64,000 nucleotides of DNA from Desulfuromonadales bacterium (GTDB taxonomy: Bacteria; Desulfobacterota; Desulfuromonadia; Desulfuromonadales; SZUA-540): NCBI GenBank assembly GCA_033549025.1, contig JAWSUS010000004.1:32001-96000 (forward strand), given 5' to 3'. Below, piece by piece: positions 31,911 through 62,718 of this stretch. The notes under the pieces were generated by a model. It saw only the letters and a list, made by a program, of their open reading frames with translations. It had not been told where the DNA came from and searched no databases. Made by a program: the position numbers and the translations under genes. How positions within the stretch are numbered: the stretch's first letter is position 1; each line of letters begins with the position of its first letter.

Positions 31911-31926
31911 TGGAACGCTTTGTGCT
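31911..31926 (+). promoter_or_regulatory. Sigma-54 (-24/-12) promoter upstream of the riboswitch
   Basis: TGGAACGCTTTGTGCT: GG-N10-GC in exact RpoN spacing. Predicted start near 31937, just before the aptamer. Confidence 0.7.
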
Positions 31927-31949
31927 CAGGTGGAGATTCCGTTTTAAAA

Positions 31950-32034
31950 TTCTCCGAACGGGCAAAGCCAGAGTGATCTGGTGACGCAAAGCTACGGGTC
32001 CTGTTTTTCAGGATAGCCGGGTTGCCGAAGAGAT
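31950..32034 (+). ncRNA. Cyclic di-GMP-I (GEMM) riboswitch aptamer
   Basis: GGGCAAA; P2 stem GCCAGA-GTGA(GNRA)-TCTGGT; GACGCAAAGC junction; P3 GGGTCCTG...CAGGATAGCC; closing GGGTTGCCGAA. All match GEMM-I hallmarks. Confidence 0.9.
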
Positions 32035-32072
32035 GAGACATGCATCTAGGCACCCGTGCGGGTTTATTGACC

Positions 32073-32117
32073 AAGAGCGCTCTCATCCTCGGAAGATGAG
32101 AGCGCTCTTTTGTTTTT
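32073..32117 (+). terminator. Leader (attenuator) terminator, the riboswitch expression platform
   Basis: 15-bp stem AAGAGCGCTCTCATC-ctcggaa-GATGAGAGCGCTCTT followed by TTGTTTTT, ~45 nt before the first ORF. Confidence 0.85.
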
Positions 32118-32159
32118 GCGTCTGCAATTTCTTTATTTGAGGCTGGGTACATACTGATC

Positions 32160-35100
32160 ATGCAGTCAATGCGGGCCGTATTGGAAAATTTGAGCATGTT
32201 GGTCGACGCCTTCTCGGGGGATGGTGAGAAGCGTAGAGGGTGTAGATCGGAAACATGCGGGGGTTCTGCGGGCAACCGGGAAGGGCTTCAGGCCGGAACG
32301 TCCGGTAAGGTAGAACGGTTCCCTTATCCTCGTTTTCTCAAGGGGTTGATGTCGGTCGGGTTCGCCATCTCTGTTTTTTTCCTGGCGATGGGGGGCTTTT
32401 CGCCGGCCATGGCGGGGACGGAATTTTGCTCGGATTACAAAAAAAATCCTGACGACATGATTGCGGTTATCGATGGCAATGACCCCTACGTTCAGGCCAA
32501 CCTGCCCAGCAGTTCCTTCGGGATTGACATGAACTGCGAATTTCGCAATTTCTCGATATCAACCATTTGGCCTAACGGCCTGACGCCTACCCTGAACTTT
32601 TATACTCCGACCAAAACCGAAATCTATCTGGTTGCCTTTGACAATGTCTGGTTCTCCGGCAATATGGCGTGCGCCAACATCGATCACAAACTGTGGGTGG
32701 TCAACTCCGAGGAAGGAGCATTCAGCGGGGCTTGCCAGGATATTATGATCCCGGCAGAAACCATCGACAAGCAGTCGCCTGCGGCCACCGCCAGCGTTGG
32801 CGTGCCCTTCACTTATGAGCTCACCCTGCCGTCCATGAATTATCCCGCTGGCACGCCCTCATCCAACGATTTGGGAACGATCACCGTGGTGGATGATCTC
32901 GCCGCTACCGGGGCCGATCTGACGCTGGTGAGTCTGAGTGCCTACAATAAAGGGACCGCGACCGCTATTCCGATCACGAATTTTTCCGACAGCACCGATA
33001 CCTATCTGCACTTTGCTTTGCCGAATATTAATGCCGGGGATCAGGTCGTTGTCGAGTTGACGGTCGTTCTCAACGATACGCCAGTCAACCAGACAGGCAG
33101 ACAGTTTACCAATACGGCAAAGTGGTCGTTTTCACGTTGGATCGATCTTGACGAAGATGGTATTCAGGATGCCAATGAATACTTTAATCCGCTGCCGGGC
33201 GAGTCAGGAATTTCGACGACGATGACCATCGTCGCACCGAATCTGGTGGTCAACAAGACAAGCAATACGACAGCCCTGAACGTGGGGGATCCGGCCACCT
33301 TCACCATCGATGTGCAGAACAGCGGGGGCGGCGCGGCCTGGAATGCGACCATCCTCGACCGGATTCCGACCGGCATGTGCGTCAACGACCCTACTGGCGT
33401 CACGCCAGGTCTGGATGCCAAACTCGTTGATGCCGACGGAACCACCTTGGTTAAAGACCTGGTTGCTGGTGCTGACTATACCGCCACCTACGCCGGCTGT
33501 GAACTTAGCCTGACTCTGACCGATAGCGCCCCGATTGCACCGGAACAGCGTCTGATCATCAACTACACGACCCAAATAGATCCCCTTGACAGCCCGGATT
33601 TTCCAGAGGACGGTGCTCTGTTGACGAACATTGCCGGGGCCACTCGCTGGTTCAGCGGGGATAGCGGGCATGAAGGTCGGCAGGAGTTCGTCAGGACACT
33701 TACCGACGGCACTCCGGGTGTGGTGGATTTCCAGGATAGCCAGACCGTCATGGCGGCCATGCATGGCTACTTTTTCGAGAAAACCGTCCAGAATCTGACC
33801 AGCTTGGCCAACCCCGCCACTATCGCGGCACCGGGTGATACTCTCCGCTACCGGCTGCGTGTTTTTAATGTCGATCAGAATATCCAGAGTATCGTCATCG
33901 ATGATTTGCTCGATCTGGACGTCTTCGATCCGTCCAGTTTTGACAATGTGGCGATTACGGCTGGAACTGGATACAACGCCAATTGGAGCTTCGAGCCTGA
34001 CACGGGTCACCTGCAAGTCAGCGGGGCGCCAACGTTAAACGTCGATGTGCATGGCGAACTCGTGGTGCATTTTGACATAACGCTGCGCTCAGATCTCGCC
34101 AACGATACCTCGGTGTCCAACCAGGCCAGTCTGACCGCCATTGATTTCAAGGCGTTAAGCGATGATCCCTACATTAACGGGGTGTCTTCGCCGGATGTGG
34201 CGGGAGACGAAGATCCGACCGTGGTGACAATCCAGACCCCGGGCCCCTTGGCCAAGGCGAATACCCAGACCACCGCTACAATTGGGGAGCGGTTCGAGTA
34301 CACCATCACTGTTCCCGCCATTCCCAGTACGGTGCCGCTCTACGACGTGCAGATTCTGGATACGCTGCCCGACAACCTGAAGTTTGTGAGCGCCCGGGTA
34401 GTTACGAGCGGTGCCTGGACCCTGGACAATATGGGCTCCGGCAACTCTCTGGTGCTGGAAGACCCCGTCACCGGCATCGATATCCCGACCGGAGGCCAGG
34501 CCAAGATTGCCATCACTGTGGAATTGCTGAACGCGAGTACCAACCAGGGAAGCGTGCTCTTCAGCAACAGTGCGACCTACACTTACAACCGGGCCAACGG
34601 TGTCGACAGTACGCAATTGCCCGGGGGCGGAAATGCCACCCCGAACATGACGGTGTTTGAACCACTCCTGGCGGCGGTCAAGACGGCCAGCTTCGCTGCC
34701 CCGGCCGGAAAACCGGCTTCCGATCCTGCCACGGTGGGTGATGTGCTGGAATATCAGGTAAGCATACGCAATAACGGTAAATCGACCGCCTTCGATACCA
34801 ACATTGTCGATACCCTGCCGGCAAATCTGGAGCCGCTCCCGGACTCCGCCACCGCCACAATTAACGGTGTCGCGATCAGTGATTTTGTCGTGAATCCGTC
34901 CACCCCTGCAGGATCGATCCTTGTTTGGGGGCGTGAAAATGGCGACGGCAGTCTCGATATCCCCGCCGGGCAGACCCTGGTGCTCACCTATCAGGTAACA
35001 GTGGTGGACGCCTCCTCGGTGAGTTCCTTCACCAACAGCGCCTATGTGGACTGGACTTCTCTTGACGAGGATTATCCCATAGATCCCTTCGATAATCCCG

Positions 35101-38100
35101 CGCCGGGCCGGGAACGCACCGGCACGGGGTGTGGCACGACCGGGATTGTTCAGCCGAACGACTATTGCAGCGGCCCGGCCAATTTCACGGTATACACGGT
35201 CGACAACACCGCCATCACCAAGTCGGTCTGGGCCGATTCCTATGCCGAGACCCCTGAGAGTACAGCCGATCCCATCCTTCGCGTCGGTGACACCGTTACC
35301 TATGATCTGACCCTTCATCTGCAGGAATATACCACGCGCCAGGTCGTGGTCGAGGACGTGCTGCCGGAGGGGCTGGTGCTGGAGAGCTTTGCGATCCTCG
35401 CTGGGACAAATTTTGCCTACTCGCCGGGGAGCCAGCCTGCGGCCGCGGCCACCGGTACCCTGCGTTGGGAATTCGGCGACATCATCAATACGCCGAACGG
35501 TATTTCGACCGACGATGATCTGGTCATCCGCTACACGGCCAGGGTGGTTATCGACGCGCCGGCCCTGGGGGTAAACTACGACCCCTCCAACCTGCTCGAC
35601 AACCAGGTGAAACTCTTTTATGCCGGTGGTGATCCGGTTGCCTATCCCGCCCGACTGACCGCGACCGCGCGAATTGACGTACGGCAACCCCTGATGACAG
35701 CCCTCAGCAAGACCGGGGCGACGGTCGGTCGCAGTGCCAGCGGCGATGGCTCCAGCGCCAACCCCTATCAGGTCGACATCGCCAACGATGTCATGCAGTT
35801 CCAGCTGCAGTCGTGCAACAACGGGCTGGCACCGGCCTATAACGTGCAGATCACCGACCTGCTCGCCAGCCAACTGGACGAAACCAGGCTGAGCACACCG
35901 GTCGTGACGCTGGGCGGCTCGGTGCTGGCTGCCGGGAGCGACTACACCTACACCCCGCCGAGCGGACGGGGGGGCGCCCTGGAGTTTGGGCTGAATACGC
36001 CAGTCGCGCCGGGCCAGTGCGCCCGGGTAGACTATACGATCGGTTTTTATACTGATCTGACCGCCGGAGAGGACTGGTCCAATCAGGCCAAGGTGACAGA
36101 GTACGAATCGCTGCCTGAAAATGGACGTCTTTATGCATCTACGGAGATGGCGCAGGTCTGGATGACCAATCAGTCCAGTGTTCAGCCGCTGGCAAAGGCC
36201 TTGTTTTCCTCGGCAACGGCGACCATCGGCGAGACCGTCACCTACCAGATCACCGTGCCGGGAACGCCGGTCAATGCCGCGCTCGACAACGTGGTGATTA
36301 CCGACACCCTCGATGCGGCACTGGTCTATGTCGGTGCCAGCGTATCCGCACCCTTTACGATGAACGCGAGTTCGTCCGCGCAGAATGTCAGCCTCGTTAT
36401 TGACCGGATTCCGGCCGGAGAACAGGCCGTCATTACCCTGACCGCCCGTGTCGCCAACAATGCCCAGGCCAATGCCGGTTACAGTTTTACCAATACGGCA
36501 GACTATACCTATACCGATATCCCGGCCGGGGCGGTGACCAGTGGCAGCAGTGCTCCCCTGACCATTGCCGAGCCGGCTGTCACCGTGAACAAGGCGGTCA
36601 CCCCTGACCGTGCGCCCACCGCCGGGGATATCCTGACCTATACGGTACAGATGGCCGCGGCGGCGGGATCTCAGTACTCCAGCGCCTATGATCTGGTTCT
36701 GACTGACTCGCTGGGGGCGGGGCTGGCCTACGTTGCGGGCAGTGCGTCGCTCAACGGCGTGGCAGTCGCTGACCCTGAAATTGACGGACAGGAGCTCTCC
36801 TGGCTTGGCGGCATCGATATCCCCGAGGGCACGACTGCCTCCCTGCTCTATCAGGTGCGCGTCCTCGACAGTGTCGCTATCGGCCAGATTCTGACCAACA
36901 GTGTCACTGCCCGCTGGACCAGCCTTGACGGCTCCAGTGCCGACGAGCGCACAGGCAGCGGCGTCGCCCCTGATGATTACGTGGCCACCGCCAGCACCAC
37001 CCTGGTCGTGGGCGACAGCACCACCTTCGCCAAGGTGCGGGTGAGCGACAGCTATGGCGAGACCGATAACAATGTTCGCATTGGCGATCTGATCGATTAT
37101 GAGTTGCGCTTGGGGCTGCAGGAAGGCACCCATACCGGCATCAGCGTCACTGATCAGCTACCCGTCGGCCTCCAGTATGTCGAAATGGTCAGTGCCACCT
37201 CCTTTGGCACGCCCCTGCTCACTCCCCCGGCTCCGGTCATCAATGGACAGACCCTGTCCTGGGCCTTGGGGTCGGTGACGAATCCCGTGGACGGTGATGC
37301 CAGCAACGATGTCCTGGTGCTCCGGTATCGGGTGCGCGTGTTAAAGGACACTCTGGCCCAGACGCCGGTCAACCAGACCCTGAGCAACAATGCCACCCTG
37401 ACCTACGAAGTGGCCGGAAATACGGTGTCGCGTTCTGGCAGCGCCAGTGTTGTCGCGCTGCAGCCGATGCTGACGGTGGCCAAGAGTGTGGCGCCAGCCG
37501 GCGGGGATACGGTCATCGGCGCCGGGGAAATCCTCACCTACACGGTCAATATCGCCAACAGCGGCGCCGCGCCGGCCTATGACACGATACTCATCGACAC
37601 CTTGCCCCTCGGACTGCGCCAGGGCGAGATCACTGTGTCGGCCATGACGCTGGTCAATAGCGGCAGCAGTCTGCCGCCCCTGGCGCCGAGCTATGAGCCG
37701 GCCACCGGTGTGGCCACCTGGAATTTCGATAGCAACAGCGCAAACACCTACACCATTCCTGCCGGCGAAACCCTGCGCGTCGTCTATACGGTCAGGGCCG
37801 ACGACGATCTCGGTCCTGGGCTGACCCTGACCAACACCGCCCAGGTCACGCTTTACCATTCCTTGGACGACGAAGCGGTGCCCTCGGGCACGACGGTCAA
37901 CGACCGCCAGGTCTACGGTCCCACCAATATGGCACAGCAGACCCTGACTTCACCGGAGCCAGGGGGGCTGCTCAAGGAGAACCCGTCGATTCCGGCTGTC
38001 ACCATCGGGCAGGAGTTCACCTATACCATCACCGTCCCGGCAGTGCCGCAGCCGATCGCCCTGCACGATGTGCGCATTTTCGATGATCTCGGCCTCACCG

Positions 38101-40706
38101 GCGTCGATTTGGGCCTGATCAGCATCAGCAAACTCGCTGGCACGCAACCCTGGAATCCGGTCAATACCGGATCCCCGACCAGTCTGGTGATCGAGGATGT
38201 CGGCGCCGGTATCGAAATTCCGGCCAATGAGCAGATCGTCATCGGGGTGACGGTGCGCCTGAACAATGTTGCTGCCAATAGCGCCGGTCTGACCTTCAGC
38301 AACACCGCCGCCTATACCTATAACCAGGTCGACGGTGATGCCGCGACGCTGAAGGAGGGGGGCAGCAATACCACCGTGGCCCTGCGGGTGGTGGAGCCCG
38401 CGGTGACTGTTCACAAGAGCGTGGTGCCCGAGACTCCTCCCCAAAACGGCGACATCCTGACTTATACCGTCACCTTGACGGCTGCGGCGGGCGCTGATTT
38501 TTCCGATGCCTTTGATACTACCCTGGTCGACATCCTGAGTCCGGAACTGCTCTATGTCAGCGACAGCGCGCGGGTGGGTGGCGTTTCTGTTGAACCGACC
38601 CTGAGCCATGACGGAGTCAACAACCTGCTTACCTGGGGCGGTGGCATTGATGTCGCGGCCGGAACAAGGGTCGATGTCACCTATCAGGTTCGGGTGAGTG
38701 ATACGGCCAATGCCGGCCAGACCCTGACCAACAGCGTGACGGCCCGCTGGAGCAGTCTTGACGGCAGCAGTCCCGACGAGCGCACCGGTAGCGGCGTCCC
38801 CGCCTATAACGATTACGTGGCCACGGCCGCTGCTCCACCGCTGACCATCCCGACTCCGACTCTGACGTTGCAGAAGAGTGTGGACAAGCCGATTGCCAAT
38901 CCCGGCGACCTGCTGCACTACACCCTGGCCATCCACAACCCGACAGCCATTCGGCTGGCCGATTTTTCCCTGATCGACGTGCTGGATCCGACCTTCTTCC
39001 AGACTGGCTCGATCCACATGCTCACCCTTCCCGATGGGGCCACGGCTACGGTCAGCGGCGACACCCTGACCATCACGAATTTGACTGTCACACCGAATGC
39101 CGACCTGACAATCGCGTTCGAGGCGCGCCTGAGAACGGACCTCAAGAGTGGTGCCGTTGTTCTGAACCAGGCGGAATTGCAGGGGCCCTGGCCGACACCT
39201 ATCAAGAGCGATGACCCGAGCGTGGACGGAACGGTGGACCCGACGCAGACCCTTATCCCGGCCGATGGCGTCGTCTATGATGTGGTGGAACGCAAACCGC
39301 TTGCCGGGGTAACGCTCACCATGCGCCTCGCCTCCACCGGGGCTGATCTGCCCGCAAGCTGTTTTGTCGATCCGTCCCAGCAGAACCAGCTGACACCGGC
39401 CGATGGCACCTACAAGTTCGATCTCACCTTTGGCCAGCCCGAATGTCCGGAAGGGGCGGACTATGTCCTTGCCGTCTCGGCGGTGCCCGCGAACTTCGTC
39501 GCGGAGCCTTCCTTGGTTCTGCCGCCTGCCAGCAGTACGGCCTATTCCGTGCCGGTGTGCGCCAACGACGCCATCCCTGACACGGCGCAATGCGAGGCGT
39601 CTGCCTCAGCGGTAGTCCCCACCACGGCGGATGCCACCTACTATCTGCAGCTCACCCTCGATTCAACGGCCAACCAGCTGTTCAATAACCTCATCCCGGT
39701 TGATCCCTATGTCGAGGAAAAGATCTATATCTCCAAGACGACGCCTCAGGTCAATGTCACCCGCGGCCAGCTGGTTCCCTACACGATTACCTTCGTCAAC
39801 ACCCTGCGCAGCACCCTACCTGAGCTGAGCCTGATCGATACGCTGCCCGCCGGCTTCAAATATGTGACCGGTTCTGCCCGGCTTGACGGCACACCGCTTG
39901 AGCCGCTGGTCAGTGGCCGGCAGCTGCAGTGGGACAACCTTGAGGTTGACTATCGGCAAAAGCACACCCTCCAGCTTCTGGCCATCGTGGGTGCCGGTGT
40001 AACCGAAGGCAAGTATGTCAATCAGGCGCAGCTGATCAAAGCCGACACGGGTGGGATCTTCTCTGAAGTGGCCACCGCCACGGTACGCGTCATCCCCGAT
40101 ACGACCTTCGACTGTACCGACGTGATCGGCAAGGTCTTTGACGACCGCAATCTCAACGGCGTTCAGGATGTTGGCGAGCCCGGCCTCTCCGGTGCCCGAC
40201 TGGTCACCGCCCGTGGGCTGATTGCCACCGCCGATGAGCATGGGCGTTTCCACCTGACCTGTGCGGCGGTTCCTGACGAAGACCGTGGCAGCAATTTCAT
40301 TCTTAAGCTGGATGATCGTAGCCTGCCGAGCGGGTATCGCATCACTACGGAAAATCCGCAGGTACAGCGCCTGACGCGCGGCAAAACCGCACGTTTTAAT
40401 TACGGTGCCACTGTTCATCGTGTGGTCAGCCTTGATCTTGCGGAAGGGGTTTTCGAGCCGGAGTCGACCGAAATGCGCCTTCAATGGATCCCAAGGATTG
40501 GCCTTTTGGTCGAAGAGTTGAAAAAAGCGCCTTCAGTCCTGCGGCTGTCGTATCTGGCAGATGTCGAATCGGAAGCGATCGTGCGTCAGCGTCTCAAAAC
40601 GCTCAAGCAGGAAATAGAGCGCCACTGGAAGTTGTCTAAGGGGGGTTACCGCTTGACGATTGAGACCGAAGTATTCTGGCGTCGTGGCGGGCCCATGTCG
40701 CGCTGA
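32160..40706 (+). CDS. Giant secreted fibrillar surface protein with ~15 DUF11/isopeptide-forming fimbrial modules, an SdrD-B-like domain and a degenerate C-terminal OmpA-like domain
   Basis: Hydrophobic signal ending SPAMA. Repeated xxK(T/S)...GDxxxY...xDxLPxG...xNxA modules. VIGKVFDDRNLNGVQDVGEPGL. True start is uncertain (32160 or a downstream Met). Confidence 0.85.
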   Translation: MQSMRAVLENLSMLVDAFSGDGEKRRGCRSETCGGSAGNREGLQAGTSGKVERFPYPRFLKGLMSVGFAISVFFLAMGGFSPAMAGTEFCSDYKKNPDDMIAVIDGNDPYVQANLPSSSFGIDMNCEFRNFSISTIWPNGLTPTLNFYTPTKTEIYLVAFDNVWFSGNMACANIDHKLWVVNSEEGAFSGACQDIMIPAETIDKQSPAATASVGVPFTYELTLPSMNYPAGTPSSNDLGTITVVDDLAATGADLTLVSLSAYNKGTATAIPITNFSDSTDTYLHFALPNINAGDQVVVELTVVLNDTPVNQTGRQFTNTAKWSFSRWIDLDEDGIQDANEYFNPLPGESGISTTMTIVAPNLVVNKTSNTTALNVGDPATFTIDVQNSGGGAAWNATILDRIPTGMCVNDPTGVTPGLDAKLVDADGTTLVKDLVAGADYTATYAGCELSLTLTDSAPIAPEQRLIINYTTQIDPLDSPDFPEDGALLTNIAGATRWFSGDSGHEGRQEFVRTLTDGTPGVVDFQDSQTVMAAMHGYFFEKTVQNLTSLANPATIAAPGDTLRYRLRVFNVDQNIQSIVIDDLLDLDVFDPSSFDNVAITAGTGYNANWSFEPDTGHLQVSGAPTLNVDVHGELVVHFDITLRSDLANDTSVSNQASLTAIDFKALSDDPYINGVSSPDVAGDEDPTVVTIQTPGPLAKANTQTTATIGERFEYTITVPAIPSTVPLYDVQILDTLPDNLKFVSARVVTSGAWTLDNMGSGNSLVLEDPVTGIDIPTGGQAKIAITVELLNASTNQGSVLFSNSATYTYNRANGVDSTQLPGGGNATPNMTVFEPLLAAVKTASFAAPAGKPASDPATVGDVLEYQVSIRNNGKSTAFDTNIVDTLPANLEPLPDSATATINGVAISDFVVNPSTPAGSILVWGRENGDGSLDIPAGQTLVLTYQVTVVDASSVSSFTNSAYVDWTSLDEDYPIDPFDNPAPGRERTGTGCGTTGIVQPNDYCSGPANFTVYTVDNTAITKSVWADSYAETPESTADPILRVGDTVTYDLTLHLQEYTTRQVVVEDVLPEGLVLESFAILAGTNFAYSPGSQPAAAATGTLRWEFGDIINTPNGISTDDDLVIRYTARVVIDAPALGVNYDPSNLLDNQVKLFYAGGDPVAYPARLTATARIDVRQPLMTALSKTGATVGRSASGDGSSANPYQVDIANDVMQFQLQSCNNGLAPAYNVQITDLLASQLDETRLSTPVVTLGGSVLAAGSDYTYTPPSGRGGALEFGLNTPVAPGQCARVDYTIGFYTDLTAGEDWSNQAKVTEYESLPENGRLYASTEMAQVWMTNQSSVQPLAKALFSSATATIGETVTYQITVPGTPVNAALDNVVITDTLDAALVYVGASVSAPFTMNASSSAQNVSLVIDRIPAGEQAVITLTARVANNAQANAGYSFTNTADYTYTDIPAGAVTSGSSAPLTIAEPAVTVNKAVTPDRAPTAGDILTYTVQMAAAAGSQYSSAYDLVLTDSLGAGLAYVAGSASLNGVAVADPEIDGQELSWLGGIDIPEGTTASLLYQVRVLDSVAIGQILTNSVTARWTSLDGSSADERTGSGVAPDDYVATASTTLVVGDSTTFAKVRVSDSYGETDNNVRIGDLIDYELRLGLQEGTHTGISVTDQLPVGLQYVEMVSATSFGTPLLTPPAPVINGQTLSWALGSVTNPVDGDASNDVLVLRYRVRVLKDTLAQTPVNQTLSNNATLTYEVAGNTVSRSGSASVVALQPMLTVAKSVAPAGGDTVIGAGEILTYTVNIANSGAAPAYDTILIDTLPLGLRQGEITVSAMTLVNSGSSLPPLAPSYEPATGVATWNFDSNSANTYTIPAGETLRVVYTVRADDDLGPGLTLTNTAQVTLYHSLDDEAVPSGTTVNDRQVYGPTNMAQQTLTSPEPGGLLKENPSIPAVTIGQEFTYTITVPAVPQPIALHDVRIFDDLGLTGVDLGLISISKLAGTQPWNPVNTGSPTSLVIEDVGAGIEIPANEQIVIGVTVRLNNVAANSAGLTFSNTAAYTYNQVDGDAATLKEGGSNTTVALRVVEPAVTVHKSVVPETPPQNGDILTYTVTLTAAAGADFSDAFDTTLVDILSPELLYVSDSARVGGVSVEPTLSHDGVNNLLTWGGGIDVAAGTRVDVTYQVRVSDTANAGQTLTNSVTARWSSLDGSSPDERTGSGVPAYNDYVATAAAPPLTIPTPTLTLQKSVDKPIANPGDLLHYTLAIHNPTAIRLADFSLIDVLDPTFFQTGSIHMLTLPDGATATVSGDTLTITNLTVTPNADLTIAFEARLRTDLKSGAVVLNQAELQGPWPTPIKSDDPSVDGTVDPTQTLIPADGVVYDVVERKPLAGVTLTMRLASTGADLPASCFVDPSQQNQLTPADGTYKFDLTFGQPECPEGADYVLAVSAVPANFVAEPSLVLPPASSTAYSVPVCANDAIPDTAQCEASASAVVPTTADATYYLQLTLDSTANQLFNNLIPVDPYVEEKIYISKTTPQVNVTRGQLVPYTITFVNTLRSTLPELSLIDTLPAGFKYVTGSARLDGTPLEPLVSGRQLQWDNLEVDYRQKHTLQLLAIVGAGVTEGKYVNQAQLIKADTGGIFSEVATATVRVIPDTTFDCTDVIGKVFDDRNLNGVQDVGEPGLSGARLVTARGLIATADEHGRFHLTCAAVPDEDRGSNFILKLDDRSLPSGYRITTENPQVQRLTRGKTARFNYGATVHRVVSLDLAEGVFEPESTEMRLQWIPRIGLLVEELKKAPSVLRLSYLADVESEAIVRQRLKTLKQEIERHWKLSKGGYRLTIETEVFWRRGGPMSR

Positions 40707-40787
40707 ACCGGGCGTCATGGTGCCGGCTCCTGAGACAGGATCGGGTGCAATGGGATGTACATGCCTCTTAAGCATAGATGGAATTAA

Positions 40788-45938: not shown

Positions 45939-45986
45939 CTCGATGCTGTTCGAGATATCCAGACCGCAAACGGAAATTAACCACAG

Positions 45987-46526: not shown

Positions 46527-46529
46527 TTC

Positions 46530-48419: not shown

Positions 48420-51400
48420 AGCGATTGCGACTGATTTTTATAGCCGTACCTGTGTTACTTGCCGCCTGCCAATCAGGCAGCAGCAGGGAAACGATCGCCC
48501 AGTTGCGCCATGTAAAGATCGATATTCAAGAAGAGGCAATCGCTGGCGGCCTTGAAAAAGCCATGGAGAGTTATCGGCGTTTTCTGGAAGAAACGCCCGA
48601 ATCGGCGTTGACACCAGAGGCGATTCGGCGTCTGGCTGACTTGAAAATTGAGCGGGAGTATGGTTTCGCCAGCGAAGCGGACACCAACCGGGATGACAGC
48701 GAGGTTTCGGTGTTGCCCGCTCCGGAGAGGGCTCAGGGGGCGAAGATCACCGCACCGACCGCGGAAGAAGAGCCGCTCGCTGCCCGGATTGAAACGCAGA
48801 CGGATTTTGAACAGCGGGCGACCCAGGCTGAATCCATCGCCCCTTCCGAAACGAGCGCTGAGGGGCTTCCCGGAGAGATTGAAGAGCTCGAACGGGCTGG
48901 GGCGCGGGAGGCGATTGAACTGTATCAGAAGTTGCTGGCCAAATATCCCCTGTATGAGCGCAACGACCAGGTATTGTACCAGATGTCCAGAGCCTATGAA
49001 GAATTGGGACAGGTCGAAGAGGCCATGGAAGTGATGAATCGCCTGGTCCGAGACTTTCCACACTCCCGTTATATCGACGAGGTGCAGTTCAGGCGTGCGG
49101 AGTTCTTTTTTACCCGCAAACATTATCTCGACGCGGAAGAATCCTACAAACGTGTTGTGGAAATGGGCGTCAGTTCCACATATTTCGAGCTCGCGCTATA
49201 CAAACTGGGATGGGCCTATTACAAACAGGAACTCTACGAAGAGGCCGTGCATAATTTCGTTGCCTTGCTGGATCACAAGGTCTCTAGGGGGTATGACTTT
49301 GCCCAGTCCCACGATGATCTCGAGCGCAAGCGTATTGACGATACCTTCCGCGTCATCAGCCAGAGTTTCTCGTACCTTGGCGGCGCCGATTCCGTCATGG
49401 AATACCTCGATAATTACGGCAAACGCAGCTATGAGGATCTCCTCTTCAGCAATTTAGGTGAATTCTATTTCGAAAAGCGGCGTTACAGCGATTCCGCGGC
49501 CGCTTACAATGCCTTTATCAGTCGCAATCCTTACCATCGCGTGTCGCCGCAGTTCCACATGCGCGTCATTGAGATTCACATGGCCGGAGGCTTCCCGACC
49601 CTGGTCATCGAGTCCAAGAAATCCTTTGCCCGCAATTACGGACTCAAGGCTGACTACTGGGAATATTTCGAACCGACGGATCGTCCCGATGTTATGGGAC
49701 TTCTGAAAGGCAATTTGACTGATCTGGCCCAGCATTATCATGCGTTGTACCAGGATCCCAAACAGGTCAAGGAAAAGGGGGAGAACTTCAGGGAGGCGCA
49801 GCACTGGTACGAGGAGTTTCTGGTCTCATTCCCGCAGGATGTTGAATCGCCGGGGATCAACTATCAATTGGCTGAGCTGCTGCTGGAGAATCATTCCTTT
49901 GCCCGGGCGGCGGTGGAATACGAAAAGACGGCCTACAACTACCCCCGTCACGACAAATCGTCCGCCGCTGGTTACGCGGCCATCTATGCCTATCGCGAAT
50001 ATCTGCGCGTTGCTGCCCCGGAGGAGAAGAGCAGGGTCAGACGCGAGACCGTGCGCAGTTCGCTTACCTTTGCCGAGACGTTTCCCGAGCACGAAAAGGC
50101 TGCCATCGTCCTGGGAGCGGCTGCGGATGATCTGTTTGATATGAAGGACTTTGAACAGGCTCTTGCCGCGGCACGCCGACTGCTGGAGGTGTTCCCTGAA
50201 GCCGCCCAAAAGGTCCGTCGCTCGGCCTGGATCGTCGTCGGACATTCCTGCTATGAGCTTGAGCGTTACGCCGAGGCTGAAGCCGGCTACGTGCAGGTTC
50301 TCGCTCTGCTTTCCCCCGAGGACAAGAATCGCCCCGGCTTTATCGACAATCTGGCGGCGGCCATTTACAGGCAGGGGGAGGAGGCCAATGTCCGGCAGGA
50401 TTATCGTGCAGCCGCCGATCATTTTCTGCGTGTCGGACGCATGGCACCGGCTTCCAAAATCCGGGAGAATGCCGAATACGATGCTGCGGCCGCCCTGATT
50501 CAGCTCAAGGACTGGAACGCCGCCGCCACGGTGCTGGTCGGTTTTCGGGAACTTTTTCCCGGGCACGCGCTGCAGCCCGAAGTGACCAAAAAAATAGCCT
50601 TTGTTTACAGGGAAGACGGTCAGCTGGCCATGGCTGCCGGCGAATACGAACGTGTCGAGCGGGAATCCAAGGATGACGAGGTAAGACGAGGCGCTCTCCT
50701 GCTGGCCGCGGAGCTGTATCAGCAGGCCGGGGACAGCCGACAGACGCTTGTGGTCTATCGACGTTTTGTGACTTATTTCCCCCAGCCCGTCGAGATGAAT
50801 CTGGAAATGCGCAACAAAATCGCGGTCATTCTGAAGGAGGAAGGGGATCAGAAAAACTACTTGCTCGAGCTTAAAGATATCGTCGCCATTGATGCAGGCG
50901 CGGGGCGTGAACGGACCGCAAGAACGCGCTATCTGGCCGGCACGGCTGCGCTTGTCTTGGCCGAGCAGACTTTTGACCGGTTCGTGGAAGCACGGCTGGT
51001 CGCGCCCTTCGAGGTCAATTTGCGCAAGAAGCAGGAATTACTGAAGGCCTCGACTCAGGCCTTCAATAAGCTGATCGAGTATGAGGTTGGCGAGGTCACA
51101 GCGGCGGCCACATTTTATCTGGCCGAGATTTACGCGCACTTCAGCAAGGCCTTGATGGAGTCCGAGCGTCCTTCCGGCCTGAATGCCCTGGAGCGGGAAG
51201 AGTATGAACTGGCGCTTGAAGAGCAGGCGTATCCTTTTGAGGAAAGAGCGATTCAGATCCACGAGAAAAATCTGGAGCTGATCATGATCGGCATCTATAA
51301 CCCCTGGATTGAGCAGAGCCTCGCCAAGCTGGCCGTGTTCGTGCCGGCACGTTATGACAAGTCGGAAGTTTCGGCCGAGGTCATTGCTTCTCTGGAGACA

Positions 51401-51604
51401 TACAGCTTCGAGATCGAGAAACCGGTATTGCCGCCCCCCGTGCCCGAGGTCGAGAATGTGCCAGCCGCAGAAACGACTGACTCAACGGTGGAGGGTGGCC
51501 TCGCCGAGGATGTAGACGGACATGACGACTTGGGCACCTCCGATACGGTGCCGCCATCGCAGGAGCCTTCCCCTCAAGAGGAAGCCCAGGCGCCTTCGGT
51601 GTGA
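48416..51604 (+). CDS. Large TPR lipoprotein (GltD/AgmU-like)
   Basis: Lipobox LAAC; many TPRs (DQVLYQMSRAY, ALYKLGWAYY); C-terminal EYELALEEQAYPFEERAI...YNPW; acidic tail. Confidence 0.75.
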   Translation: MKRLRLIFIAVPVLLAACQSGSSRETIAQLRHVKIDIQEEAIAGGLEKAMESYRRFLEETPESALTPEAIRRLADLKIEREYGFASEADTNRDDSEVSVLPAPERAQGAKITAPTAEEEPLAARIETQTDFEQRATQAESIAPSETSAEGLPGEIEELERAGAREAIELYQKLLAKYPLYERNDQVLYQMSRAYEELGQVEEAMEVMNRLVRDFPHSRYIDEVQFRRAEFFFTRKHYLDAEESYKRVVEMGVSSTYFELALYKLGWAYYKQELYEEAVHNFVALLDHKVSRGYDFAQSHDDLERKRIDDTFRVISQSFSYLGGADSVMEYLDNYGKRSYEDLLFSNLGEFYFEKRRYSDSAAAYNAFISRNPYHRVSPQFHMRVIEIHMAGGFPTLVIESKKSFARNYGLKADYWEYFEPTDRPDVMGLLKGNLTDLAQHYHALYQDPKQVKEKGENFREAQHWYEEFLVSFPQDVESPGINYQLAELLLENHSFARAAVEYEKTAYNYPRHDKSSAAGYAAIYAYREYLRVAAPEEKSRVRRETVRSSLTFAETFPEHEKAAIVLGAAADDLFDMKDFEQALAAARRLLEVFPEAAQKVRRSAWIVVGHSCYELERYAEAEAGYVQVLALLSPEDKNRPGFIDNLAAAIYRQGEEANVRQDYRAAADHFLRVGRMAPASKIRENAEYDAAAALIQLKDWNAAATVLVGFRELFPGHALQPEVTKKIAFVYREDGQLAMAAGEYERVERESKDDEVRRGALLLAAELYQQAGDSRQTLVVYRRFVTYFPQPVEMNLEMRNKIAVILKEEGDQKNYLLELKDIVAIDAGAGRERTARTRYLAGTAALVLAEQTFDRFVEARLVAPFEVNLRKKQELLKASTQAFNKLIEYEVGEVTAAATFYLAEIYAHFSKALMESERPSGLNALEREEYELALEEQAYPFEERAIQIHEKNLELIMIGIYNPWIEQSLAKLAVFVPARYDKSEVSAEVIASLETYSFEIEKPVLPPPVPEVENVPAAETTDSTVEGGLAEDVDGHDDLGTSDTVPPSQEPSPQEEAQAPSV

Positions 51605-51626
51605 CACAGGTAAGGATTAACATTCG

Positions 51627-52352
51627 ATGGATCTCATGATGGGGACAAAACGGAAAAGAATGGCCTCCTGCCTCCGCTGGTCGGCAAGCCGCGTCACCTT
51701 GGTGGCGGTGTTGGGTGGGATGGCACTTGGCGGATGTGCCGCCGTAGGAAAGAGCAAGGAGGCCATTGTGGAACCCTCACCCGTAGTGGCTGTTGAGGCG
51801 ATGGCCGAATCCGCCGGTCCCGGTGTGCGGCATTTTACCGATGGACGGGAAGGTTTCGTGATCTCGGAACCGTCCACGCTTAATACGCGATTGCGCGCGG
51901 AATTCGATGAGGCCGTGACTCTGATCCAGGAAACTCAGTATGACCAGGCCATCGACGCTTTGAAGAGGGTGGTGGCGCAGGCCCCGGAGATCTCGGCGCC
52001 CCGCATCAATCTCGCCATTGCCTACAGACTGTCTAATCAACCGGAGCAGGCTGAGTCGGAGTTGAAAACGGCCTTGGAGTTGATAGAAGGGCATCCGGTG
52101 GCTAGCCATGAATATGGTTTACTACTGCGCCAAGCCGGACGTTTTGCCGAGGCACGGGTAATATACGAAAACGCCCTGGACCAGTTTCCCGAATATTATC
52201 CTTTACACAGAAATCTAGGCATTTTGTGCGACCTGTATCTGAAGGATTTGGCCTGTGCCGTGAGCCATTACGAAAGCTACAGCAAGGCTGTACCCAAAAA
52301 CGACCAGGTAAAGCTCTGGATTGCTGATCTGAATGCCCGGTTGGGACGCTAG
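51627..52352 (+). CDS. TPR lipoprotein (GltE-like)
   Basis: Lipobox LGGC; TPRs ending NLGILCDLYL...WIADL. Confidence 0.7.
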   Translation: MDLMMGTKRKRMASCLRWSASRVTLVAVLGGMALGGCAAVGKSKEAIVEPSPVVAVEAMAESAGPGVRHFTDGREGFVISEPSTLNTRLRAEFDEAVTLIQETQYDQAIDALKRVVAQAPEISAPRINLAIAYRLSNQPEQAESELKTALELIEGHPVASHEYGLLLRQAGRFAEARVIYENALDQFPEYYPLHRNLGILCDLYLKDLACAVSHYESYSKAVPKNDQVKLWIADLNARLGR

Positions 52353-52418
52353 CCGGCTGTGGTGAAAAGCATTTTGGGCGAGACTTGGAAGGAAGTTGTT
52401 CGCTTATTGGAGTTGTCA

Positions 52419-52727
52419 ATGAATCGAAAACTGATTGTCTGCTGTTGTCTGGTTCTGCTGTGGGTCAGCCAGGCCATGGCGGAAGAACAGCAGGCCGCTG
52501 GGTCAACTGCAAATGGTGAAGACGGGGCCAAAATGATTTCCGGCATGTCGATTGTCGGCAATGATGAAGCGCCGAAGTCGCTCTTTATCGTTCCATGGAA
52601 AAGTTCCGAATTGGGCGTCGAAACCAGTCTGACTCGAACCTTGGACGAGCGAGATGTGCCAGTGGATAGGGATGTCTTTATGCGCCAGCTGGATTTTTAT
52701 GAAGTCAGTACCGGAGGAAACAACTGA
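52419..52727 (+). CDS. Small secreted protein (GltF-like by position)
   Basis: Signal peptide ending AMA; SIVGNDEAPKSLFIVPWK motif. ATG 52419 after GGAG. Confidence 0.6.
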   Translation: MNRKLIVCCCLVLLWVSQAMAEEQQAAGSTANGEDGAKMISGMSIVGNDEAPKSLFIVPWKSSELGVETSLTRTLDERDVPVDRDVFMRQLDFYEVSTGGNN

Positions 52728-52857
52728 AGACCAACCCTGTTTCAGGAGGATAATAGATGGAGTGAGCAGTGCGGACGCTACAAGCGATTTATGGAGTAAC
52801 CAGGGTTTTTGCGGGTTTGATGCACGCTATATATCAGGCAAAAAAGGAGCTAACGTC

Positions 52858-53493
52858 ATGAACACTATTGTTAAATTTATCATGGAAGGGGGCGTTTTCA
52901 TGTACCCCATTTTACTCGTTGGCGCTGCCGGCGCGGCCATCGGGGCAGAACGTTGGTGGTATCTCAGGCGCACCCGGAATGCCAGTCGCGCCATGTGGAA
53001 AGAACTGCAACCGGTGTTGGCCGAGGGGGATTTCGACAAGGCCCGCGAGATGACCACCGACGACAAGGCAGCCATCTCCCAGATGCTGTCCATGGGGCTG
53101 GCTGTGCAAGGAGCGGTCCGACGGCGTCAGGATATTGAAATCGCCATGGAAGAGAGCCTGATGGAAATTACGCCTCAGCTGGAAAAACGAACCCCCTATG
53201 TCGGGCTGCTGGCCAATATCTCGACCTTGCTAGGTCTTCTCGGGACCATCATGGGTCTGATCCAGGCGTTTACCGCCGTCGCCAATGCCAATCCTGCCGA
53301 AAAAGCTGACCTGCTTTCTGCCAGTATCTCGACAGCCATGAATACTACGGCTTTTGGGCTGATCGTCGCAATTCCTCTGCTGATTCTGCATGCCATGTTG
53401 ACAACTACGGCCGGCCAGATCCTCGATAGCCTCGAGATGGCCTCGGTCAAGGCACTGAACAGTATGTCCAGGGCATCCAAACACCAGTATTAA
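52858..53493 (+). CDS. MotA/TolQ/ExbB proton-channel subunit (AglR-like)
   Basis: GGVFMYPI, TLLGLLGTIMGLIQAF and TTAFGLIVAIP motifs. ATG 52858 after AAGGAG. Confidence 0.9.
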   Translation: MNTIVKFIMEGGVFMYPILLVGAAGAAIGAERWWYLRRTRNASRAMWKELQPVLAEGDFDKAREMTTDDKAAISQMLSMGLAVQGAVRRRQDIEIAMEESLMEITPQLEKRTPYVGLLANISTLLGLLGTIMGLIQAFTAVANANPAEKADLLSASISTAMNTTAFGLIVAIPLLILHAMLTTTAGQILDSLEMASVKALNSMSRASKHQY

Positions 53494-53507
53494 TAAGCGA
53501 GTTTATT

Positions 53508-53993
53508 ATGGCTAGACGTCGCAAAAGAGGATCGCAAGAAGCGCCAGAACTGGATATCACCACATTCCTTAATTTGATGGTGGTGTTGATCCCGTTTCTG
53601 CTCCTTAGTGCCGTGTTCTCCCGCATAACGATCATGGAACTGAGCGTGCCGACGGCGGCAGGTGGAGGGGCAGCAAATAAACCGAGCTTCACCATAGAGG
53701 TCATTGTCCGCAGCACCGGTTTCGAGCTGGCCAACGGTACGCAGGTGGTGGCGGCCGTTCCAAAAGCCAATGACGAGTATGACCTGAAAAAGCTGTCACA
53801 AATGCTCATCAATCTGAAGAACGATTATCCTGAAAAAGAGGATGCGACCGTTTTAGTGGAACCCAGGATCGAATACAACTACCTGATTCAGATCATGGAT
53901 ACCGTGCGCGGCACCGAAGTCATACTGCCGGGGGAATCCGAAGTGCAGAAAATGGCTCTTTTCCCGACCATTTCGATTGGAGACGCGCCATGA
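53508..53993 (+). CDS. ExbD/TolR-family subunit 1 (AglQ/S-like)
   Basis: Basic N-terminus, ELDITTFLNLMVVLIPFLL TM segment, and YNYLIQIMD. Confidence 0.85.
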   Translation: MARRRKRGSQEAPELDITTFLNLMVVLIPFLLLSAVFSRITIMELSVPTAAGGGAANKPSFTIEVIVRSTGFELANGTQVVAAVPKANDEYDLKKLSQMLINLKNDYPEKEDATVLVEPRIEYNYLIQIMDTVRGTEVILPGESEVQKMALFPTISIGDAP

Positions 53994-54484
53994 GTGAGAA
54001 CAGACGCATAAAAAGGATGGCGCGCAGGAACAAAAAAACACCTGGGCTGAACTTAACGTCCTTGATGGATGTATTCACCATTCTGGTCTTTTTTCTGCTG
54101 TTCAACTCTGGGGCCGGTGAAGTGCTGGAAGCCCCCAAGACCATCAAGTTACCTGATTCCTCGGTTGAATCCAAACCCAGGGAAACGGTCATTATCATCG
54201 TCGCTCCGGACACGGTGCTGGTCCAGGGTGAAGAGGTGGCCTCCACGCCAGAAGTCCTTGCTTCTTCCAGCGATATGATTGGCGGGGTCGCGGAGCGCCT
54301 GAATCAACTTGAACGCAATATTATCGGGGATGCTACCCGAGCTGCTGTTGACAATAAAGAAGTCACCATCCTTGCGGACAAGGCCATCCCTTTTGTCGTG
54401 CTCAAAAAAATCATGACTACCTGCACGGGTGCCGGATACGGAAAGATTTCTTTGGCGGTCAACCAGAAACCTTCGGAAAGCTAG
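53990..54484 (+). CDS. ExbD/TolR-family subunit 2 (AglS/Q-like)
   Basis: LNLTSLMDVFTILVFFLL, IKLPDS and ADKAIPF...KIMTTC motifs. Confidence 0.88.
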   Translation: MSENRRIKRMARRNKKTPGLNLTSLMDVFTILVFFLLFNSGAGEVLEAPKTIKLPDSSVESKPRETVIIIVAPDTVLVQGEEVASTPEVLASSSDMIGGVAERLNQLERNIIGDATRAAVDNKEVTILADKAIPFVVLKKIMTTCTGAGYGKISLAVNQKPSES

Positions 54485-54496
54485 TGTGGATATATT

Positions 54497-55906
54497 GTGA
54501 CTACTTCCTTACTATCAGAAGAATTGGAGCCCCTGAAGGCGGAAATAGAGCAAGTTCAGCTTCGGCTTGCGGCATTGAAAAGCGAGTTGGTTGCCGCAGA
54601 CACGGACGCCGAGGTCTTTGCTCTTGAGCGGCAACGCTTTGATGCCTTGCGGGACGTCTGCAATGCGATCGACCGCCTGGATGAATTTGAAGCTGTCGAA
54701 CTCTTTTGGGAGGGATTGTCGACCCATGCTGACGGCGTTCAGCATTTAGGCCGGCTGCGCGAGCGTATTGACCAGTTTGAGGGAGAAATCCAGGGGGTCC
54801 TTGACCGGCAGCAATCGCTGCAACGTCAGATTCGGCACTGTTTGGATCAACTGGAGATTCTGGACGAAGAAGTAAGCCAAGCCTACGCCCGCGAAGAGCG
54901 ACGACAGGACGAACTCGTCGTTGAGAGAGAGGCCTCGCCGATTCCATATCGACCGATGATCATGCCCTGGAGCAATGACAGCGAGAGCGAAAAGCGATAC
55001 CGCTTCGCCCTGCTCATTGCCCTGGTCCTGTCGCTTGGCTTCGGAGGAATCGTCAATGTTTGGAAATTGCCGGAACCCGATCTGTCGGCACCGCTCGTCA
55101 TCCCGGAGCGCTTGGCGATGCTGGTCAAGAAACAGCAGGAAAAGCCGAAGGAGGTGCCCAAGCCCAAGCAGAAAAAAGAAGAAATAAAGCCGGAAGAACA
55201 AGTCGCGGAAACGCCGAAGGAGCAGAAGGTCAAGGCGACTCCTGCCGAACGGGTGGCGGCGCGCACCAAAGTGGAAAGTACCGGTGTCATGGCCTTTAAG
55301 AGCAGCTTCAAGGATCTCATGGATGAAACTCCGGTGGCCGGTCTTGGTCTTGAAGCCCGTCTGAGCAACACTCCTGCCGCACCGGCAGGTTCAGCACAGG
55401 CGAGCCGTTCCTTGGTAGCGATGGCGGCGGGAAGTGGTTCCGGCAGTGGTGGAATAAGCAATGCTGCTGTGAGCACCAATCTTGGCCGTGGTGCCGGCGG
55501 TGGCGGTGGAAGTGGCATTGGTCGTGAGGGTGTCGCTTTCACGCGGGTCCAGAGTGATATCGCCAGCCTGGCAGGCGAAGAGGCACGGCCGCTCAGTGAA
55601 GGAGCGGGGCCGGCGCGCACCGACGAAGAGATTCAAATTCTGTTTGATCGTTACAAGGCGGCGCTTTACCGGATATATAACAAGGAATTGCGCAAAGATC
55701 CGACCCTGCGAGGAAAGATGGTCCTGCGCATTACCATCGAGCCGAGTGGTGAGGTTTCCGCCTGTAAGGTGGAGTCGAGCAATATCAACTCCCCTGAATT
55801 GGAAAAACAGGTAGTTGCGCGGGTCGCGAGGATCAATTTCGGACCCAAGGAAGGGGTGCCCAAGACGACCATCCTTTATCCGATCGATTTTCTCCCCGCC
55901 GGATAA
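54497..55906 (+). CDS. TonB-like energy transducer with AgmX/PglI C-terminal domain (GltG-like)
   Basis: N-terminal coiled coil, one TM helix, K/E/P-rich then G/S-rich linker, and C-terminal RTDEEIQ...YNKELRKDPTLRGKMVLRITIEPSGEV. Confidence 0.82.
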   Translation: MTTSLLSEELEPLKAEIEQVQLRLAALKSELVAADTDAEVFALERQRFDALRDVCNAIDRLDEFEAVELFWEGLSTHADGVQHLGRLRERIDQFEGEIQGVLDRQQSLQRQIRHCLDQLEILDEEVSQAYAREERRQDELVVEREASPIPYRPMIMPWSNDSESEKRYRFALLIALVLSLGFGGIVNVWKLPEPDLSAPLVIPERLAMLVKKQQEKPKEVPKPKQKKEEIKPEEQVAETPKEQKVKATPAERVAARTKVESTGVMAFKSSFKDLMDETPVAGLGLEARLSNTPAAPAGSAQASRSLVAMAAGSGSGSGGISNAAVSTNLGRGAGGGGGSGIGREGVAFTRVQSDIASLAGEEARPLSEGAGPARTDEEIQILFDRYKAALYRIYNKELRKDPTLRGKMVLRITIEPSGEVSACKVESSNINSPELEKQVVARVARINFGPKEGVPKTTILYPIDFLPAG

Positions 55907-55952
55907 AAATTCGGGAGAGGGGAAGGGCTTACCCTTTCCAACGGGTTTCATG

Positions 55953-55992
55953 ACATAAAAGCCCTGGCCTTGTTTGGCTGGGGCTTTTGTGT
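55953..55992. terminator. Probable intrinsic terminator closing the large operon
   Basis: ACATAAAAGCCCTGGCC pairs with GGCTGGGGCTTTTGTGT over 17 bp (including G-U pairs). Confidence 0.7.
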
Positions 55993-62693: not shown

Positions 62694-62718
62694 CGGTATG
62701 AAGGATACGGAGGTAATT

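Follow-up and report, generated by a model that had tools for sequence, protein, structure and literature searches.

A Giant Fibre and a Predicted 40-Strand Barrel as Candidate Outer-Membrane Partners of an Agl-Glt-Type Motor Core

Introduction

What does a gliding-type motor act on in bacteria that do not glide? Luciano et al. (2011; PMC3169522) described, in the parts of that study drawn on here, a cluster in which gltC, gltD, gltE, gltG, aglR, aglQ, and aglS are joined by one further gene; it occurs in Geobacter and in several Proteobacteria, and its function is unknown. The job of this core in non-gliding bacteria, which bears on the origin of myxobacterial gliding, has been an open question since 2011. 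It is raised again by a 64,000-nt stretch of DNA from a Desulfuromonadales bacterium (assembly GCA_033549025.1, contig JAWSUS010000004.1, positions 32,001 to 96,000; hereafter the window), in which the genes for a giant fibre and a giant outer-membrane barrel stand in front of such a core in a single cluster of 11 genes. It is proposed here that the cluster arose by a single joining of two older modules, A with the fibre and barrel (genes 1-2) and B with the core (genes 3-11), and that the motor may act on a fibre-barrel complex that reaches the surface by itself. The core is already known; its partners, its ninth gene, and the barrel family appear to be new, no published description of the barrel or of the barrel-core pairing having been found in the open literature as covered by listings and the beginnings of abstracts, with subscription journals outside that scope.

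The 11 open reading frames lie on the forward strand at window positions 32160-55906. A preceding reading of the DNA, made from its letters alone (the sequence-only reading), had reported 11 co-oriented genes with short gaps or overlaps; this account and its gene sizes hold, the gaps from gene 1 to gene 11 being 81, 48, 3, -4, 22, 6, -74, 14, -4, and 12 nt, none above 81 nt. The -74 overlap of genes 7 and 8 disappears if translation of gene 8 is taken to begin at the ATG at 52858, a start with a GGAG ribosome site and a predicted product of 211 aa.

The Fibre and Its Barrel

Gene 1 (32160..40706, + strand) encodes a 2848-aa fibre with a signal peptide, an N-terminal region that matches no known family, 11 or more DUF11/CLIPPER repeats, and a conserved C-terminal 500 aa. 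The repeats match DUF11 (PF01345, E 3.8e-68, eight stretches) and TIGR04226 (E 9.5e-81, six stretches), and a pattern count on the sequence finds 11 Lys motifs with matching Asn motifs, in keeping with the CLIPPER Lys/Asp/Asn triad. No solved relative of the N-terminal 450 aa was found by sequence. The C-terminal 500 aa consist of an immunoglobulin (Ig) domain, a DUF11 domain, an SdrD-B-like domain, and a final alpha/beta domain, and are conserved whatever the passenger. A model of the C-terminal part (predicted local distance difference test score, pLDDT, 81.8) resembles Gram-positive pilins and the CLIPPER domain (PDB 9IFR; Z 12.9, rmsd 3.0, 120 residues aligned). An OmpA-like nature of the final domain was considered and rejected: its order of secondary structure agrees with that of OmpA and the profiles lie in register, at a non-significant level (probability 0.3, E 0.19). 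About 58 residues precede the hydrophobic signal segment (window 32160-32420), so that either the signal peptide is extended or the real start lies further downstream.

Gene 2 (40788..45938, + strand) encodes a 1716-aa outer-membrane protein with three OmpA-like and two Ig-like domains followed by a predicted 40-strand beta-barrel at about residues 807-1716, so that the triple-OmpA barrel described earlier is borne out in domain content and by the model. AlphaFold2 applied to residues 590-1716 with 61 sequences gave a pLDDT of 84.9 and a pTM of 0.80, and the secondary-structure list of the model runs through the two Ig-like domains into 40 membrane strands, a count that is taken from this list rather than from coordinates and may be off by a pair. 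Across 114 homologues 37 of the 40 strands alternate in hydrophobicity, and a closed 40-strand barrel fits because every loop of more than 11 residues follows an odd strand. The predicted number would surpass the 36 strands of SprA/Sov. SprA/Sov is called the largest bacterial barrel so far in the part of PMC12421860 used here. In fold, the model aligns with SprA over 676 residues, about twice as many as with any other chain (Z 15.8, rmsd 14.9, the Z tied with porins), a likeness that may reflect barrel size only. Homology to SprA, considered on account of a motif resemblance, was unconfirmed by a solved-structure profile search, by a search with the insert alone, and by NCBIfam at E up to 5; Foldseek with the barrel model returned generic barrels only (TM-score <0.2). 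The family comprises 3,366 clusters at 50% identity and has, in the libraries searched, no family model beyond OmpA and no solved relative. Its first OmpA domain retains Asp137 and Arg159, presumably the pair that binds peptidoglycan, in all 107 close homologues compared, and the second and third domains each lack one of the two.

The barrel gene follows, or is fused to, a gene for a protein with the fibre C-terminus in all 21 barrel loci read, and fibre and barrel can therefore be regarded, on sequence grounds, as one functional unit. Among the 150 barrel representatives listed, 26 are of at least 2,000 aa and 18 of these carry the fibre C-terminus, and DUF11 is present in 12 of 15 scanned. 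Other members of the family vary widely in size. One barrel match (G134:C2:461371-462426) falls in an open frame as long as 11,777 aa, which probably encodes fibre and barrel as one very large fusion, and four short relatives (G580, G520, G550, and G489) have open frames of only about 810 aa. Distant relatives of about 2,000 aa (L143-L158) carry, by fusion, a short DUF11/SdrD-B part together with one OmpA domain; their neighbours are several DUF11 proteins encoded separately, one of them conserved, secreted, about 165 aa long, and made of a single domain, in an arrangement that resembles an usher with pilin-like subunits, and no core gene was seen nearby. Motor-free homologues also occur in tractable bacteria, on the Sinorhizobium meliloti plasmids NZ_CP021805.1 and NZ_CP021807.1 and on NZ_CP106953.1 (Eleftheria), the last with a two-component system and a FecR-domain gene upstream of the fibre. 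Many plasmid homologues are annotated as TonB-dependent receptors, with which the predicted fold disagrees.

The Agl-Glt Core

Genes 4-11 are, as judged from their sequences, the published Agl-Glt "core complex." Gene 4 (46530..48419, + strand) encodes a 629-aa protein of tetratricopeptide repeats (TPRs) in the GltC position, 74% identical to a 629-aa protein of Geotalea uraniireducens. Gura_3077 (629 aa) is listed as a GltC homologue in the part of PMC3169522 consulted, and Gura_3077, 3076, 3075, 3073, 3072, 3071, and 3070 (629, 1108, 240, 211, 166, 166, and 484 aa), as given there, parallel genes 4, 5, 6, 8, 9, 10, and 11 in order and size, the pairing of genes 5-11 being by order, size, and domain only. 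Genes 5 (48416..51604, + strand; 1062 aa) and 6 (51627..52352, + strand; 241 aa) encode TPR lipoproteins in the GltD and GltE positions with lipobox cysteines at Cys18 and Cys37, the former agreeing in order and size with Gura_3076 and the latter in size with Gura_3075. Gene 7 (52359..52727, + strand; likely start 52419) encodes a small secreted protein with a strand motif conserved across 64 sequences. It holds the place of the additional gene of the core, which, on the material used from Luciano et al. (2011), has no homologue in Myxococcales.

The stator subunit in the AglR position is encoded by gene 8 (52858..53493, + strand; longest open reading frame from 52654), a MotA/TolQ/ExbB protein (PF01618, E 1.2e-23) with two Thr positions that are invariant in 64 of 64 matches. 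Genes 9 (53508..53993, + strand) and 10 (53990..54484, + strand) encode ExbD/TolR subunits (PF02472), of which the first has Asn at the position of the transmembrane Asp and the second keeps the Asp, as do 76 of 76 matches. This pairing, an asymmetric stator, recurs in 52 of 59 loci; the remaining seven, mostly labelled Nitrospirota, have Asp in both subunits. In Myxococcus the AglQ substitution D28N paralyses the motor, according to the part of PMC3858216 used. Gene 11 (54497..55906, + strand) encodes a GltG-like transducer of TonB/TolA type with one membrane helix, a charged linker, and a C-terminal AgmX/PglI domain (NF033768, 67.4 bits against a cut-off of 40), the single strong domain of this kind in the genome; an FHA domain is lacking, and the match to the GltG model NF033760 (E 1.9e-16) lies far below the cut-off of that model and covers only its positions 400-649.

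The names GltC, GltE, and GltF for core genes rest on Luciano et al. (2011) and not on detection by hidden Markov models (HMMs) here. The GltC model NF033756 had no match at gene 4 or in eight homologues, no true myxobacterial GltC was found among ten genomes searched, the GltE match of gene 6 (E 8.7e-5) is a generic TPR match, and gene 7 matched no family in the HMM libraries, GltF included. The likeness of the last eight genes to the Glt core proposed by the sequence-only reading is thus upheld in order, size, and domains, and not in a specific detection of GltC, GltE, or GltF; its equation of gene 7 with GltF found no family match to stand on. The models of CglB and CglE likewise had no match in the genome.

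Gene 7 is a candidate TonB-box-like ligand of gene 11. Complex prediction with the C-terminal domain of the latter scored 0.42 against 0.00 for the best control, which lends weak support. For calibration, 116 of 157 solved pairs and 2 of 215 mismatches attained such a mark; only 18 of the 157, but both mismatches, did so at scores of 0.60 or less, a band in which a prediction is more often wrong than right unless the pairing is likely beforehand. The runs agree in at least 94% of contacts with a partner pLDDT of at least 47, and the score may reflect likeness to solved TonB-box complexes.

Two variations were seen in other cores. Gene-4 matches in G219:C5, G037:C47, G262:C26, G102:C41, and G387:C79 lie in open frames of 1,418-1,595 aa, possibly fusions of the GltC- and GltD-position proteins, and in two loci (L108 and L120) the core is preceded by a VWA-FHA protein, VWA being the domain type of CglB and FHA the domain missing from gene 11.

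Linkage of the Two Modules

Linkage was followed in two sets of genomes. The close loci, 80 of 113 found, were chosen by likeness to the query and carry Desulfobacterota-type, Nitrospirota, Alpha- and Gammaproteobacteria, Gemmatimonadota, and other labels (unchecked labels of metagenome-assembled genomes); the second set, the gammaproteobacterial sample, is drawn from the class of a Thiohalomonas genome, with about 400 genomes scored. Of the 71 close loci with enough DNA, 69 have the barrel gene immediately before genes 3-4, the two exceptions retaining a barrel nearby in a reordered or divergent arrangement; the fibre C-terminus precedes the barrel in 51 of 52, and the core is complete in 50 of 50. 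Gene 3 (45987..46526, + strand), which encodes a secreted 179-aa protein of no known family, is always found just before gene 4, in 75 of 75 close loci and in 38 of 38 loci of the gammaproteobacterial sample with upstream DNA, and it is therefore counted from its position as a ninth core gene, part of the core rather than of the barrel module.

The gammaproteobacterial sample is more varied. A gene-4 match was found in 74 of 400 genomes and a barrel match in 47 of 401, with both in 24 (hand count). Eight genomes have the two modules within 26 kb in the reverse order, core, fibre, and then barrel. The other cores mostly adjoin genes for a TIGR04565 small barrel and for SH3-barrel, DUF3570, thioredoxin, ApbE, haem-motif, and LamG proteins. 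Among the relatives of the present bacterium the cluster is patchy, being present in 11 of 31 including its own genome, and it was not found in the sequence read of two complete genomes of the same genus.

The two kinds of outer-membrane partner sort by clade. A quick tree of gene 4 splits a mega-barrel side (28 rows; SH-aLRT 93; L076 labelled from a genome-level match) from a small-barrel side (31 rows). No mega-barrel was present in 31 upstream and 20 downstream regions of small-barrel-side cores, three of the latter (L183, L186, and L189) containing no core gene, and no small-barrel module was present in the 80 close loci; the small-barrel homologues of the sister clade were not found in the present genome either. 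In the regions read, a core clade has as its partner the mega-barrel or small barrels of GltA/B type and in no case the two together, and this mutual exclusivity supports the mega-barrel as a replacement of the small barrels. Within the cluster, HMM family scans of the 11 proteins found no small GltA/B-type barrel gene, as had been noted earlier, and the one above-cut-off TIGR04565 match of the genome lies outside it, in a protein of barrel, repeats, and OmpA domain that is of ordinary OmpA type and is encoded among housekeeping genes. The suggestion that mega-barrel and fibre take the outer-membrane role is strengthened by their co-occurrence with the core across phyla, in two gene orders, and to the exclusion of the small-barrel module.

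The sister-clade module (L092-L122, for example L109:9896-12712 and L122:3936-9476; L174) contains, beside the TIGR04565 small barrel, SH3-barrel, DUF3570, and DUF4266 proteins, a TlpA-like thioredoxin, and ApbE, with a 900-aa beta-propeller that bears a hydrazine-synthase-alpha-like domain and a doubled CXXCH, and a LamG protein. The haem, thiol, and flavin genes among these suggest that cores of this clade handle a cargo connected with redox chemistry.

On the barrel side, a motor clade (19 rows, support 100), all of whose members are multi-OmpA proteins, is nested among motor-free barrels. A model of the N-terminal segment scores in motor-clade barrels alone, having been built from the same clade and hence not being independent. 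Distances of gene 4 and barrel correlate with r = 0.90 over 21 taxa, including one (G109) in which the genes lie on different contigs.

A Working Model and Its Rivals

The core is the ancestral one from which Myxococcus built its gliding machine. Its two clades have different outer-membrane partners, and so it seems to be a force transducer of general use whose outer module can be exchanged. The reading preferred here, to which we give about an even chance, is that export and anchoring of the fibre are the work of the barrel alone and that the core pulls on the mounted complex through the GltG-like protein, gene 7, and the TPR proteins. Module A would be a self-sufficient adhesin display unit. 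The fibre would leave the cytoplasm by Sec, its repeat stalk would pass outward through the 40-strand barrel, its conserved C-terminal domains would remain there, and the OmpA domains would tie the barrel to peptidoglycan. In module B, the stator of AglR/Q/S type would convert proton flow into movement of the GltG-like arm, which would probably grip gene 7, and the TPR proteins and gene 3 would relay force to the periplasmic face of the barrel by analogy with the contact of GltC with the GltA/B barrels in Myxococcus. The motor would then act on the mounted fibre-barrel complex by deploying, tensioning, repositioning, or releasing it, rather than as an obligate export engine. A precedent is offered by the Myxococcus adhesin CglB, which, in the portion of the literature drawn on, reaches the surface without Glt and is then exposed and retained by Glt. 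A giant adhesin display unit as partner would give the motor a concrete target, testable in cultured carriers.

Several points weigh against this model. Core and barrel lie apart in G109 and G266, and 10 of 31 small-barrel-side cores show no small barrel upstream, so that cores can evidently sit without an adjacent partner. The gene-4 and barrel trees share only six supported splits, of 13 and 12, respectively, and linkage and mirror trees also follow from inheritance as one cassette, kin not being independent. One ExbD subunit usually lacks the proton-accepting Asp. Finally, the motor-linked barrels share a distinct triple-OmpA N-terminus, motor-free barrels having none or one OmpA domain, and the triple-OmpA subfamily could have become dependent on the motor for export.

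This last point leads to the strongest rival, an energized translocon resembling the type IX system, in which the proton motor is required to drive a fibre of 2,800-4,400 aa through the barrel or to free it from the lumen. Besides the distinct N-terminus, it has in its favor a barrel of SprA size with which SprA can be aligned at length, and the coupling of a giant barrel with a proton motor in the type IX system, as described in the part of PMC12421860 used. The distribution of the two modules argues the other way. In the sample of the bacterium's own phylum the barrel family is present in 25 of 301 genomes and core gene 4 in 2 of 301, 23 of the 25 barrel-positive genomes having no gene-4 match; among plasmids the counts are 26 records and none. 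Motor-free barrels serve equally long fibres (open frames of 4,321 aa and 4,280 aa in genomes without a gene-4 match), and two fibre-barrel fusions lie within the triple-OmpA subfamily, inside the motor clade itself. The fibre-barrel pair is thus an older, often fused module that is mostly found without the motor. Since it is so common alone and so often a single protein, it probably exports on its own, as far as sequences can tell, and the motor is probably unneeded for export. The energized translocon is held to be improbable, and the dedicated energized export system of the sequence-only reading is weakened by the same counts, by the frequency of fusions, and by the lack of a mega-barrel within 26 kb of most cores of the gammaproteobacterial sample.

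A slightly lower chance is given to linkage without cooperation, that is, an adhesion island under one riboswitch whose core acts on exopolysaccharide, as Nfs does, or on an outer-membrane protein whose gene lies at another site. Either module is found by itself in most genomes: only eight of the 74 core-positive genomes of the gammaproteobacterial sample have a mega-barrel within 26 kb, and 11 of 32 genomes of that sample with a strong barrel match lack the core (hand counts). A pel-type operon also follows the cluster in the window; however, pelA/B genes follow the core in none of 49 loci (with at least 1 kb of downstream DNA, mostly about 2 kb), and a Pel polysaccharide link as a general feature was rejected. 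The persistence of linkage through inversion and reordering, the clade-wise exclusivity of mega-barrel and small-barrel partners, and the lack of a match in this genome to the small barrels of the other clade likewise speak against linkage alone. A minimal gliding machine, in which the motor would propel the cell by moving the barrel-fibre complex along it in the manner of SprB or CglB, shares the motor family of Agl-Glt, a long adhesin, and an outer-membrane platform in the place of GltA/B, but is considered quite unlikely, as the Asp and Arg kept throughout in the first OmpA domain should, if they bind peptidoglycan, hold the barrel in place, gene 11 lacks FHA, and the cluster contains no GltI/GltJ or CglB gene.

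Leader, Transcripts, and Flanking Genes

The leader of the cluster contains an aptamer of the c-di-GMP-I clan (c-di-GMP-I-UAU; 31952..32030, + strand; Rfam RF03168, 67 bits against a gathering threshold of 65.9), followed by an intrinsic terminator hairpin, long and ending in a U run, that from sequence and fold would form the riboswitch expression platform (about 32074..32118, + strand). The leader fold has a z of -5.0. Control by a cyclic dinucleotide, c-di-GMP or cGAMP, would fit a role of the cluster in surface attachment. A relative (G529) has two such riboswitches in tandem upstream of its fibre gene, with a similar hairpin after each aptamer; these form two near-identical promoter-riboswitch-terminator units (L162:10683-11200) just after a tRNA gene and are preceded by TTGACA boxes rather than sigma-54 sites. 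No such riboswitch was present in six regions of the gammaproteobacterial sample scanned alongside it. Of the regulatory frame proposed earlier, the riboswitch is retained and two elements fall away: the sigma-54 site at 31911 deviates from the consensus at two positions, and the window contains 75 matches of this quality where 69.9 +/- 7.6 are expected by chance, and the 3' terminator (55966-55985) is a weak hairpin of a kind found three times against 1.5 +/- 1.1 in shuffles, which is chance level.

Contigs from four sediment or crude-oil metatranscriptome runs of two studies cover 27, 21, 9, and 12 of 30 cluster bins. Among the 32 RNA-run pieces listed, some bridge genes 3/4 and 6/7 and none bridges fibre/barrel or barrel/gene 3. 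Because DNA in the libraries is not excluded, they do not amount to evidence for a single transcript.

The cluster is flanked by a glutamate dehydrogenase gene and the pel-type operon, the latter immediately 3' of it (56376-63243) with genes for a GH114/deacetylase PelA-like protein, a TPR protein, a PelB barrel, and a PelC-like lipoprotein. Upstream (1-31594) lie housekeeping genes, including those for nickel insertion, AIR-carboxylase-like, HD-domain, and HEAT-repeat proteins, ftsK, bacA, RNase J, an acyl-CoA ligase, an IclR regulator, truD, a tRNA methyltransferase, a flavodiiron protein, an alanine symporter, priA, and gdhA.

Comparison With Known Systems

The closest known system is the Agl-Glt core complex, with which the cluster shares gene order and near-identical sizes (Gura_3077-3070; PMC3169522), a TolQ/ExbB protein with two ExbD proteins and proton-channel residues, and a GltG-type AgmX/PglI transducer. 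It differs by its ninth core gene, gene 3, and by the linked fibre and giant barrel, no outer-membrane partner being named in the part of that study used. In the sister clade of the core, the place of giant barrel and fibre is taken by small barrels, DUF3570, thioredoxin, ApbE, and a haem-motif protein. The Agl-Glt and Agl-Nfs machines of Myxococcus (PMC9946355, PMC3858216, as far as used here) likewise have a TolQR-type stator with two ExbD proteins, a GltG-type arm, TPR proteins, and an adhesin-holding outer-membrane platform. Unlike Myxococcus Agl-Glt, the cluster is without GltA/B/H/K, GltI/J, and CglB, its gene 11 is without FHA, its platform is modelled as one giant wall-anchored barrel, and its adhesin is a repeat fibre.

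In gene content the cluster matches none of the type I, type V, and type IX systems, as had been claimed. It contains no ABC transporter, membrane fusion protein, or TolC, and the fibre bears an N-terminal hydrophobic signal segment, in contrast to type I cargo, which has no Sec signal. With type V systems the fibre-barrel module shares a passenger and barrel that form a single protein or come from two neighbouring genes, export by Sec, and, in most members, apparently no dedicated energy source. Type V barrels have 12 or 16 strands, whereas about 40 are predicted here, with OmpA domains between passenger and barrel, and no autotransporter, Omp85, or POTRA domain was matched among the cluster proteins in Pfam or NCBIfam. 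Gene 1 resembles the CLIPPER (DUF11) adhesins in that its repeats are CnaA-like, stand in tandem, and bear Lys, Asp, and Asn motifs; the CLIPPER paper (bioRxiv 10.1101/2025.04.25.650565), in the portion of its text considered, contains neither "barrel" nor "secretion" and proposes neither an export route nor a motor.

The type IX system (SprA/Sov with GldLM/PorLM) has in common with the cluster a very large single-chain barrel, a proton motor, a TPR lipoprotein, and a large adhesin with a conserved C-terminal domain. It differs in that the barrel here showed no match to SprA in sequence searches, bears OmpA domains, and in many cases forms one protein with its cargo, and in that the motor is of TolQR/TonB type; no GldK/N ring or PorV-type gene is present in the cluster, and no GldL/M, GldK/N, or T9SS C-terminal signal family scored above cut-off among its 11 proteins, to which the search was confined. 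A bolder reading, which we regard as doubtful though less so than any of the rivals above, is that the 40-strand barrel and the conserved C-terminal domain of its cargo constitute an undescribed and widespread export system, which here would have become a proton-powered translocon or adhesin mover by recruiting the Agl-Glt core. If true, it would parallel the type IX system with different components: its barrel would exceed every solved single-chain barrel in size, and its stator, being asymmetric, would have one proton-accepting Asp.

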